DNA of 2,216 nt, taken from Escherichia coli (lineage in GTDB: Bacteria; Pseudomonadota; Gammaproteobacteria; Enterobacterales; Enterobacteriaceae). The notes under the pieces were generated by a model. It ran no database searches. It had not been told where the DNA came from and saw only the letters and a list, made by a program, of their open reading frames with translations. Position 1 is the stretch's first letter; the number at the start of each line of letters is the position of its first letter. Positions 1-2,216 of the stretch are shown here, one piece after another. The stretch lies in the NCBI RefSeq assembly GCF_003334305.1, contig NZ_QOWS01000056.1. One strand, 5' to 3'. The position numbers and the translations under genes were made by a program.

Positions 1-33
1 AGAAATATGTTCCATCAATTTTTTAAGTTCCAT
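1..33 (-). CDS. First 11 codons ([11 protein letters not shown]) of a further H-rpt transposase ORF that runs leftward out of the window; unknown whether it is full-length or another truncated copy
   Basis: Positions 1..44 are identical to 381..424 and 761..804, including the ATG (31-33) and the Shine-Dalgarno (38-44). Confidence 0.4.
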   Translation of the reverse strand, partial: MELKKLMEHIS

Positions 34-158
34 TTGTTCACCTTATTTATGTAAGGAGTATTTGATCATGTATAAGCAATAAAAAACAGCTTCAGGTAAT
101 GAGGAATATCTCAATTTTTAAACATAAAATGCGAATTATTTAGTACAAAAAAGTAGCG

Positions 159-413
159 TTACGTGATCTTTCCCTGGGATACAACTCTGGCAATGGTATC
201 GTGAACAGGAATACCATTTTCAAAATCACCATATTGCTTCAAAAAATCGAGATGTGTTTCCCCGAAATCCTCTATATCTTCCCAACCTTCTGCACCAGAA
301 ATAACGGCACAAATAGTCAACAGTAGAATATCTGACAATTTATGCACCACTTTCCAGGCTTGTCTGTAATCGGGGGTAATAGAAATATGTTCCATCAATT
401 TTTTAAGTTCCAT
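159..413 (-). CDS. Truncated ISAs1-family (H-repeat-associated) transposase, N-terminal fragment, 84 aa; second identical copy created by the tandem duplication
   Basis: Nucleotide sequence identical to 539..793 (the 380-bp unit is repeated exactly). Same Shine-Dalgarno and start context. Confidence 0.8.
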
Positions 414-417
414 TTGT

Positions 418-424
418 TCACCTT
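418..424 (-). promoter_or_regulatory. Shine-Dalgarno (AAGGTGA) for the H-rpt ORF starting at 413
   Basis: Identical to 798-804; 4-nt spacer to the ATG. Confidence 0.5.
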
Positions 425-538
425 ATTTATGTAAGGAGTATTTGATCATGTATAAGCAATAAAAAACAGCTTCAGGTAATGAGGAATATCTCAATTTTTA
501 AACATAAAATGCGAATTATTTAGTACAAAAAAGTAGCG

Positions 539-793
539 TTACGTGATCTTTCCCTGGGATACAACTCTGGCAATGGTATCGTGAACAGGAATACCATTTT
601 CAAAATCACCATATTGCTTCAAAAAATCGAGATGTGTTTCCCCGAAATCCTCTATATCTTCCCAACCTTCTGCACCAGAAATAACGGCACAAATAGTCAA
701 CAGTAGAATATCTGACAATTTATGCACCACTTTCCAGGCTTGTCTGTAATCGGGGGTAATAGAAATATGTTCCATCAATTTTTTAAGTTCCAT
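539..793 (-). CDS. Truncated ISAs1-family (H-repeat-associated, H-rpt) transposase, N-terminal fragment only, 84 aa; probably non-functional as a transposase
   Basis: Residues 1-79 ([79 protein letters not shown]) match, from memory, the N-terminus of E. coli H-repeat proteins (YhhI/YdcC-like, about 378 aa). The ORF then ends after 5 unrelated codons (QGKIT-stop), so the DDE catalytic region is absent. An AAGGTGA Shine-Dalgarno lies 4 nt upstream of the ATG. It resembles my recollection of the 84-aa YbfQ (unverified). Confidence 0.8.
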
Positions 794-797
794 TTGT

Positions 798-804
798 TCA
801 CCTT
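798..804 (-). promoter_or_regulatory. Shine-Dalgarno (AAGGTGA) for the H-rpt ORF starting at 793
   Basis: Minus strand reads ataAAGGTGAacaaATG. Identical elements at 418-424 and 38-44. Confidence 0.5.
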
Positions 805-1018
805 ATTTATGTAAGGAGTATTTGATCATGTATAAGCTATGAAAAACAGCTTTAGACAATAAGTAGTATCTCAATTGTTGAACTTAAAATTCGAATTATT
901 TAGTACAAAAAAGTAGCGTTACGTGATCTTTCCCTGCAAATGGAACGCAAAATAAACACCTATTCCATGAGTTATATAATTTTTCACAATGATTAATTTG
1001 TTTTCTCAGGAAGAGATT

Positions 1019-1588
1019 TTATTTCTCTTCACTACGAATTAGTTCATGCTGTATCTTTATTAAACATTCGTAAGACTCATTTTTGTTCGGGAGATGTGCT
1101 GTCATTCGAGCATAAGTTGGTTTCTCATCTTTAAAATATTTTACCATGATTGAATTATCAAGGACTGCCAACAACTGAACTGGATCACTGCTCTTTTTTT
1201 GATAGATACCCGCTCTTATATAACTTCTAAACCGATCGCCGAGAAACGCCGTTTTTTCTGCTGTATTTATCAACTCCTGCAACGTTCCTTTGATGGCATG
1301 ATTTTCATTAAGGCGTAGTGACCCGACGCGAATTAAGAGTCTCGCCCCGCTTGGTGTGAATTTATTATTTTTACATGTACCCAGTTCTGTTTGCCAATAA
1401 TACTCACCGATGTCCTCATTCTGATACCATCTCCACATGGCTTTATTATTTAAGACAGGAAACGCGGAAAAAATAGTACCCTTAGCGAAAATAGTAAAAC
1501 AATCATGATCTTTAGCTTGTATTTCGCAATCAGCTATAACACCAAAACTAACAAATATCATCAGCAAAAAGAACAAAACTCTTTTCAT
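1019..1588 (-). CDS. Candidate Rhs immunity protein, secreted/periplasmic (N-terminal signal peptide), 189 aa
   Basis: Intact 189-aa ORF whose ATG (1586-1588) overlaps the toxin stop TGA (1585-1587) as ATGA. A GAGG Shine-Dalgarno lies 9 nt upstream. The N-terminus [24 protein letters not shown] has basic residues, a hydrophobic core and a small-residue cleavage region. The gene is AT-rich (about 30 percent GC in a sampled stretch). Immunity role is inferred from position and coupling only. Length and signal peptide resemble my recollection of E. coli YbfC (unverified). Confidence 0.7.
1532..1588 (-). other. Predicted Sec signal peptide (residues 1-19) of the 189-aa ORF
   Basis: [19 protein letters not shown] followed by DCEIQ. 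No canonical lipobox (Asp precedes the Cys), so signal peptidase I cleavage is more likely than lipoprotein processing. Confidence 0.55.
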
Positions 1589-2216
1589 TTTCTTATTCCT
1601 CTCGATGTTCTCTGTTTCATTTTAGCTAAAATTTCACCCAAATCATCTATCCCTGCTGTTGCTGGCCCATCGGGTTTATTAATGTCTGGGAATAAATAGG
1701 GTTCTGCACAAGTATATCCTGGTGGTAATTGAGTTGTTGGCCAATTTGTCTGTGGCAGGTAATCACTTGCTGTCTTTGTATCCATCCCTGGATACTGGGA
1801 ATCATCCTGTGGCGTACAAGTCAGATTTGGTTTTACCCACTTCCTGCAATACAGTGTGTAGTCGTAAGGGCTTAATACTCTGAAGAATGTTTTGAAAACA
1901 TTAGGCGCACTACTGGCCTGGTCAATAGGATATGGCAGTCTTAATTGTTTCGCTATGTCCGGCAATTTACTTGGATCGGGCGTAGGCGGTTTGTTGGGTC
2001 TCGCTCCATATCCGCCATTATTTAAGTGTCCATATTTTGATGCCAGTCCCATTGAATCTATATACTGAACCGGATTCAGCGGATACTGATAAAAATTCCA
2101 TCCCCCCTTCAGCCCAATCGGATCCTGAGTGATATACCTCCCCTGCAGCGGGTCATAATAGCGGTGGCGGTTGTAATACAGGCCGGACTCCTCATCATAC
2201 TGCTGCCCCGGCAGCC
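1585..2216 (-). CDS. Rhs-family polymorphic toxin, 3' portion: end of the conserved Rhs core fused to a variable C-terminal (toxin) domain; 5' end lies beyond the window
   Basis: Minus-strand translation of 2214..2044 gives [57 protein letters not shown] with no stop codon back to the window edge. This is the hallmark C-terminal end of Rhs/YD-repeat cores (established knowledge). The frame continues uninterrupted to TGA at 1585-1587. The supplied ORF (1585..2052) begins at an internal Met only because the true start is outside the window. Confidence 0.85.
1588..2043 (-). other. Variable Rhs C-terminal domain (Rhs-CT, candidate toxin), 152 aa, activity unassigned
   Basis: Sequence immediately after the demarcation motif: [50 protein letters not shown]...[22 protein letters not shown]. 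Pro-rich with 3 Cys. I see no recognisable nuclease, deaminase or other catalytic motif by eye. Position after the core demarcation is where polymorphic toxin domains sit (established knowledge). Confidence 0.6.
1597..1602 (-). promoter_or_regulatory. Shine-Dalgarno (AGAGGA) for the 189-aa ORF, embedded in the 3' end of the toxin CDS
   Basis: Minus strand reads cgAGAGGAataagaaaATG, with 9-nt spacing from GAGG to the ATG. Confidence 0.5.
2044..2216 (-). other. Conserved C-terminal segment of the Rhs core, including the core/CT demarcation motif region
   Basis: Contains DPIGL followed 21 residues later by [10 protein letters not shown], a PxxxxD-x-GL demarcation motif. The segment is markedly GC-rich (about 59 percent by hand count of 2101-2216) compared with everything downstream. 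Confidence 0.8.

Follow-up and report, generated by a model that had tools for sequence, protein, structure and literature searches.

An extra 380-bp unit in the defective H-rpt cluster of the Escherichia coli RhsC locus

The RhsC neighbourhood and its H-rpt array

The window, by which we mean the whole stretch of 2,216 nucleotides analysed here (E. coli assembly GCF_003334305.1, contig NZ_QOWS01000056.1), can be aligned from end to end with the RhsC locus of E. coli (rhsC-ybfB-ybfO-ybfC-ybfQ-ybfL-ybfD). Read along the minus strand of the window, the order is rhsC, ybfB, ybfO, ybfC, ybfQ/ybfL/ybfD, ybgA and phrB, and RefSeq annotates ybfQ, ybfL and ybfD as ISAs1 family transposase pseudogenes. 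The features of the window are collected in Table 1.

The genes to the right of the repeats provide the context. The first 57 residues of the ybfO fragment match positions 1205-1261 of the 1261 positions of the NCBIfam model RHS_core (E=7.7e-32), and TIGR03696 is matched as well. The arrangement is that of an Rhs element, in which the end of the core (the DPxGL region) is followed by a variable tip and then by a small ORF, here ybfC, which overlaps the ybfO stop codon by 4 nt (ATGA). Searches of Pfam and NCBIfam gave no family for either the ybfO tip (1585-2043, minus strand) or YbfC. The N-terminus of YbfC is a hydrophobic, signal-peptide-like segment of 19 residues; if YbfC were the cognate immunity protein, it would sit outside the cytoplasm.

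Table 1. Features of the window; coordinates are those of the window, and element positions count from the H-rpt left end.
Feature	Position	Strand	Remarks
H-rpt copy a (C1 / ybfQ type), element positions 1-380	557..936	-	left terminal repeat at 936
H-rpt copy b, the extra unit, a chimera	177..556	-	differs from copy a at 12 sites, element positions 46-99
H-rpt copy c, first 176 nt, cut by the window edge	1..176	-	left end at 176
Junction 1, copy a position 380 / copy b position 1	547..566		between 557 and 556; minus strand ...GTTGTATCC / CAGGGAAAG...
Junction 2, copy b position 380 / copy c position 1	167..186		between 177 and 176; rare feature
84-aa ORF (YbfQ-type), copy a	539..793	-	from the ORF list; ATG at 793
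Second 84-aa ORF, identical translation	159..413	-	from the ORF list; ATG at 413
Third identical start and first 11 codons, running off the window	1..33	-	1-176 equals 381-556
Sigma-70 promoter element TTTTCA-17-AATACT, copy a leader	817..845	-	pattern match
Promoter variants TTTTTA-17-AATACT, copies b and c	437-465, 57-85	-	pattern match
12 substitutions, copy a leader against b/c leaders	838..891		plus-strand coordinates
ybfC, 189 aa	1019..1588	-	context, outside the repeat; WP_000832338.1 in homologous records
Orphan Rhs fragment ybfO, 3' end	1585..2216	-	context; last 57 Rhs-core residues (DPIGL...) and a variable tip of ~152 aa

In the window, Tandem Repeats Finder detects one array, at 1-936, with a period of 380, 2.5 copies, 97% matches and 0 indels. 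By direct string comparison, and by the repeat finder, 381-760 is base-for-base identical to 1-380; this perfect 380-bp repeat is real and far beyond chance. The third, partial stretch is less alike, with 12 substitutions between 1-176 and 761-936 (93.2% identity), and the similarity stops at 936/937. The left terminal repeat of H-rpt, CAGGGAAAGATCACG, lies on the minus strand at 936, 556 and 176, at a spacing of 380 bp. The natural units, each beginning at this terminal repeat, run from 936 to 557, from 556 to 177, and from 176 off the edge, and each consists of element positions 1-380, that is, a 143-nt leader with promoter and Shine-Dalgarno sequence followed by 79 codons. The window holds left ends of H-rpt only.

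Copies a and b both end at element position 380, where each adjoins the left end of the copy that follows. Apart from one synonymous site, copy a has the alleles of the first H-rpt copy of MG1655 (C1, described below), and in homologous records copies of its type are annotated as ybfQ, or as an ISAs1 family transposase missing the C-terminus. Copy b is made of two parts: its positions 1-99 carry the leader allele of the downstream copy, and its positions 100-380 are those of copy a. The leader of copy a differs from those of b and c at plus-strand 891, 884, 880, 877, 866, 864, 861, 857, 856, 853, 841 and 838. Between positions 1-176 of copy b and copy c, on the other hand, there are 0 differences over 176 nt. 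Copy c comprises the left terminal repeat, the leader, the ATG at 33 and 11 codons, and what follows beyond the window edge is probably the remainder of a longer element of the ybfL or ybfD type, judging from the maximum of two junctions in any complete genome.

The 84-aa ORF consists of the 79 N-terminal codons of H-rpt and five more (QGKIT), followed by a stop, which come from the terminal repeat of the next copy. Residues 8-80 match the Pfam domain DDE_Tnp_1_assoc (PF13808, E=4.4e-27), so that the N-terminal DDE_Tnp_1-associated domain of the ISAs1 family is present. With the NCBIfam model transpos_ISAs1 (E=5.7e-18) the score of 65.1 bits does not reach the cut-off of 70, since only 79 codons of the transposase are left. 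Neither copy a nor copy b of the window encodes a complete DDE catalytic domain or a full-length transposase. Like the full-length K-12 copy (ybfL) with its internal stop, they are defective fragments of the ISAs1 family rather than active members.

Signals for expression accompany each of these starts. A Shine-Dalgarno sequence, AAGGTG, is located 5 nt upstream of each ATG, and the pattern matches to sigma-70 promoter elements in the three leaders are given in Table 1. Shimada et al. (2014) listed a constitutive ybfQ promoter in the ybfC-ybfQ spacer with the same hexamers as copy a, and RNA polymerase holoenzyme binds this promoter between ybfC and ybfQ (PMC3946193). A generic promoter scan returned 0 minus-strand promoters in the H-rpt leaders. 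Within the coding part of the unit, at 627-645 and 247-265 on the minus strand, there is a terminator-like hairpin with a T-run (TCGGGGAAACACATCTCGA TTTTTTGAAG); it probably matches by chance and appears twice owing to the duplication of the unit.

A preliminary description of this DNA had reported a perfect 380-bp tandem duplication of the 5' part of an H-rpt transposase gene beside an Rhs element, with three identical translation starts, each with Shine-Dalgarno sequence and ATG, and 79 codons to the unit. The string comparison and the repeat finder bear out the duplication, the PF13808 match and the RefSeq annotation bear out the nature of the gene, and the three identical starts exist. Its strand for the transposase has to be corrected, since the Shine-Dalgarno sequences, the ATGs and the N-terminus lie on the minus strand. 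Likewise, its unit of 1-380 has an arbitrary phase, natural units beginning at 936, 556 and 176. The identity that it gave to the copies holds for b and c, but not for the copy on the ybfC side, copy a, with its 12 leader differences.

The cluster in K-12 and in other E. coli genomes

Three tandem, partly defective H-repeats were reportedly found at K-12 RhsC by Zhao, Sandt, Feulner, Vlazny, Gray and Hill, in J Bacteriol in 1993, and the RefSeq annotation of ybfQ, ybfL and ybfD records such a structure as well. In the literature searched, H-rpt or the H-repeat otherwise receives passing mentions only. The MG1655 cluster consists of C1 (element positions 1-380), C2 (ybfL) and C3 (ybfD), with one junction between a position 380 and a left end. 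C2 is the full-length element of 1,290 bp, with terminal inverted repeats of 16-18 bp (left end CAGGGAAAGATCACGTAACGC; right end, as reverse complement, CAGGGAAAGATTACGAAAGCC) and an internal stop codon in ybfL; it is in size and ends an element of ~1.3 kb with short terminal inverted repeats. C3 is without the first ~25 nt and without positions 911-1223. C1 is 94.5% identical to the first 380 bp of C2, with 21 differences, and the longest uninterrupted identity between C1 and C2 in K-12 is only about 99 bp.

The MG1655 C2 (5683-6972 in the locus) abuts position 380 of C1 on one side and approximately position 25 of C3 on the other. No target-site duplication is present at its flanks, AGAGTTGTATCC and (C)TTTTTGTACTAA, which is consistent with H-rpt copies that have been rearranged rather than freshly inserted. 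Because the ends of C2 abut internal positions of its neighbours in the absence of a target duplication, these ancient junctions look transposase-made. This suggests that the C1/C2 and C2/C3 junctions arose by an old transposase-mediated rearrangement, by adjacent deletions, or by nested insertion followed by loss.

The window resembles the K-12 cluster in locus, flanking genes, truncation at position 380, terminal repeat and the 84-aa YbfQ, at 98-99.5% nucleotide identity. It differs from K-12 in having one additional 380-bp unit, and hence two junctions rather than one, and in that its copies b and c carry a different leader allele.

How common these junctions are was determined with a junction probe of 40 nt, 20 nt from each side, so that no 28-nt seed could match without crossing the junction. 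Of 5,426 complete E. coli genomes, 2,363 (~44%), MG1655 among them, contain a match, and the 2,370 matching places include at most two in any one genome. It follows that exactly 7 records have a double junction, and we confirmed this state individually in GM4792 and ECCTRSRTH03. No genome with more than two junctions is found among the 5,426 complete E. coli genomes. The ybfO-tip/ybfC region is present in about 3,188 complete genomes, roughly one-quarter of which are junction-free. In GE3, which is one of these, and in many other genomes, a single fused H-rpt copy adjoins ybfC; the fused copy of GE3 is a deletion-type recombinant, reciprocal to the gain. A laboratory-evolved K-12 derivative has been reported to carry a deletion of ~1,300 bp that fuses ybfL to ybfD (PMC10044804).

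These comparisons alter two statements of the preliminary description. Tandem repetition at this place had been considered atypical, yet MG1655 and the other genomes matched by the junction probe have as their standard arrangement a 380-bp stub with another H-rpt copy behind it. The array had also been considered open-ended, perhaps amplifying; the maximum in complete genomes is the two junctions already contained in the window, and neither three or more identical units nor upward variation in copy number is seen. The comparison with related genomes that it recommended shows that a single junction is common and that a second one occurs in just the 7 genomes.

A longer probe of 461 nt (window 140-600), which extends across both junctions, gave its best match in the complete E. 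coli set with GM4792, at 99.0%. Overlapping pieces were joined in this comparison, and the probe did not separate the double-junction genomes. Three genomes taken at first for double-junction genomes, ET745, N10 and XH989, proved to owe their longer spans to IS1 or IS5 insertions and not to extra units. Such insertions have occurred independently in DA33133, ET745, N10 and XH989, where they lie between ybfQ and ybfL/ybfD, within the first H-rpt stub or directly behind it, and the dead H-rpt cluster is a sink for further IS insertions. XL1-Blue was also set aside as a close match, since its match lies outside the RhsC locus, among pieced-together repeat fragments. This patchwork of short fragments (NZ_CP081007.1, 4646702-4654180), near the end of the record, contains RHS pieces in both orientations, tRNA-Val/Lys/Ile/Ala, an H-rpt stub, IS1, IS2 and phage fragments, and it looks like leftover repeat contigs that were concatenated rather than real sequence.

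An exact 125-nt probe comprising the variant leader and the junction had 0 matches in GTDB representatives and one in a metagenome, OGFB01008973.1 (1.46 kb). This contig has an ordinary single junction and the b/c leader allele. Its full-length H-rpt (47-1337) is 96.3% identical to MG1655 C2, is preceded by the end of a C1, and begins with 130 nt that equal the leaders of window copies b and c. It is plausible that the contig is related to the parental, single-junction arrangement in the lineage of the window.

Origin of the extra unit

Very similar to the window at this locus is GM4792 (NZ_CP011342.2), in which ybfC, C1, a chimeric extra unit and another H-rpt copy follow in the same order. 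Over its entire length the window aligns to it in a single piece at 99.5%, and the 11 substitutions that distinguish the two are mostly leader alleles. As far as position 81 its middle copy is C2-type at 8/8 informative sites, and from position 181 it is C1-type at 13/13, with one clean switch. The extra unit is in record CP011342.2 of GM4792 and is absent from the sister record CP011343.2 and from MG1655; a single 380-bp H-rpt unit is thus exactly what separates the two GM4792 genome records. Since the sister record lacks the unit, either the gain is very recent and took place in laboratory time, or the records differ in their assembly. The GM4792 event is independent of that in the window because its parent lineage (MG1655, CP011343.2) is single-junction. 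ECCTRSRTH03 also has three left ends, and the switch there lies between positions 248 and 269; because the breakpoint differs, this event too is independent.

The extra 380-bp unit is a copy with its own internal seam, and we consider it probable, with good confidence, that it arose from a single unequal homologous recombination between two older copies. The ancestral state would have been [C1 = 1-380], [C2 = the full 1,290-bp element, ybfL] and [C3 = a 5'- and internally deleted element, ybfD], with C1 and the corresponding 380 bp of C2 forming the direct repeat that served as substrate for the exchange. C2 on one sister chromosome would have paired with C1 on the other, and one unequal exchange, presumably of the RecA type, would then yield [C1], [a chimera of C2 leader and C1 body] and [C2...], that is, one more 380-bp unit. 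The outermost leader (761-936) would retain the older C1 allele. The equality of 1-380 and 381-760 would follow because a single contiguous stretch of 380 bp was copied once. The three-copy state would be rare because a perfect repeat of 760 bp collapses easily. The two signs of unequal crossing-over, a chimera with a single switch and reciprocal deletion alleles, are both found, and the H-rpt cluster probably gains and loses whole units through homologous exchange.

The perfect identity had been attributed in the preliminary description to a very recent amplification, to ongoing homogenisation or to an assembly artefact. A recent event agrees with the present analysis, and an artefact keeps some probability, as discussed below. 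A single unequal crossover makes both amplification and homogenisation superfluous as explanations. Homogenisation or gene conversion was therefore discarded as unneeded: copy a keeps its own leader allele, the middle copy is chimeric, and the identity follows from a single duplication.

Could the extra unit be a product of assembly? The genome would then truly be [C1][C2], and the assembler would have looped through the 380-bp repeat once too often. The double junction is very rare (7/5,426 genomes), the two GM4792 records are distinguished by precisely this unit, and some assemblies labelled complete, such as that of XL1-Blue, are visibly faulty at Rhs/H-rpt repeats. Against this, copy b requires that a C2-type leader be joined to a C1-type body. 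If C1 and C2 diverge as they do in K-12, reads or k-mers exceeding the ~99 bp of unbroken identity resolve the path, and reads longer than ~100-200 bp would contradict the chimeric one. Moreover, at least two other independent assemblies have the double-junction state with different breakpoints. We regard an artefact as unlikely, while granting it more than a token probability.

Slipped misalignment contributes to tandem-repeat instability in E. coli at such repeat lengths, and the repeats here adjoin and are just 380 bp long. In this way the extra unit might have been made independently of RecA, by replication slippage or by template switching from one direct repeat to the other. The same chimera is predicted by slippage and by unequal sister-chromatid exchange, so sequence alone cannot separate the two; we hold slippage to be very unlikely as the source.

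What is the transposase's part in the gain, if any? Every unit starts exactly at the left terminal repeat, and the original C1/C2 and C2/C3 junctions fall precisely at the ends of C2 with no target duplication and could be transposase-made, for instance by adjacent deletions. A new H-rpt insertion, or an IS tandem dimer, might on this ground be proposed as the origin of the extra copy. Nevertheless, the extra unit ends at position 380, as C1 does, and combines the alleles of its two neighbours; an insertion reproduces neither feature. The resident full-length copy of K-12 is a pseudogene with an internal stop. At the extra unit there are neither target-site duplications nor a junction of right end to left end. 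In addition, the E. coli W genome paper, which describes H-repeats as accompanying Rhs tips, states that no transposition of these repeats has been observed (PMC3032704).

The dimer form of this proposal can be compared with known elements. IS21, IS30 and IS911 form tandem dimers with an active junction of right end and left end. The window has in common with them IS sequences arranged head to tail. In the window, in contrast, no right repeat abuts a left repeat: the junction joins the internal truncation point to the left end, and the copies are truncated or pseudogenes. The window is not an IS dimer, because its junction joins the internal position 380 to a left end. An origin of the extra copy by transposase action is extremely improbable.

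Homologous exchange, the preferred origin, is familiar from direct IS repeats. Unequal recombination between such repeats shares with the window the tandem repeats, the chimeric copy, the reciprocal deletions and the change in copy number by whole units. Compared with IS-repeat recombination in general, the repeat of the window, at 380 bp, is unusually short, and it occurs within a dead IS cluster instead of on the flanks of a selectable gene.

The YbfQ stub and the length polymorphism of the cluster

It might be asked whether the duplicated stub has a function. One could propose that YbfQ, which consists of the DNA-binding-type N-terminal domain of the ISAs1 transposase and has a promoter of its own, is a domesticated regulator, either a trans-inhibitor of H-rpt transposition or a regulator of the host, and that the duplication is a selected gain in dosage. 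Such a reading is hinted at by the RNA polymerase binding at the ybfQ promoter (PMC3946193) and by the phenotype of a ybfQ deletion: a 2025 paper reports that C. elegans fed an E. coli ybfQ deletion strain show altered UV-B tolerance (PMC12655312). This phenotype is odd for an 84-aa transposase stub. In the present analysis we found no evidence for selection, or for a selected function, of the stub, and we think that there is only a very slight chance that it is a functional regulator. If it were, the duplication of the unit would not be neutral recombination noise.

The window is the known defective H-rpt cluster (ISAs1-family, ISEc1-like) between ybfC and ybgA with one recombinational unit added. 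The extra unit is a rare but ordinary length polymorphism of a well-known defective-IS cluster, and it reveals no new mobile-element behaviour and no new Rhs biology. The H-rpt cluster of RhsC is a length-polymorphic site with 0, 1 or, rarely, 2 stub junctions, in which the number of units changes by whole steps of 380 bp, and this appears to happen even among laboratory sublines of K-12. The polymorphism is worth knowing for variant calling and for checking assemblies, in which spurious "intergenic ybfQ/ybfL mutations" and gains or losses of units are to be expected at this locus.
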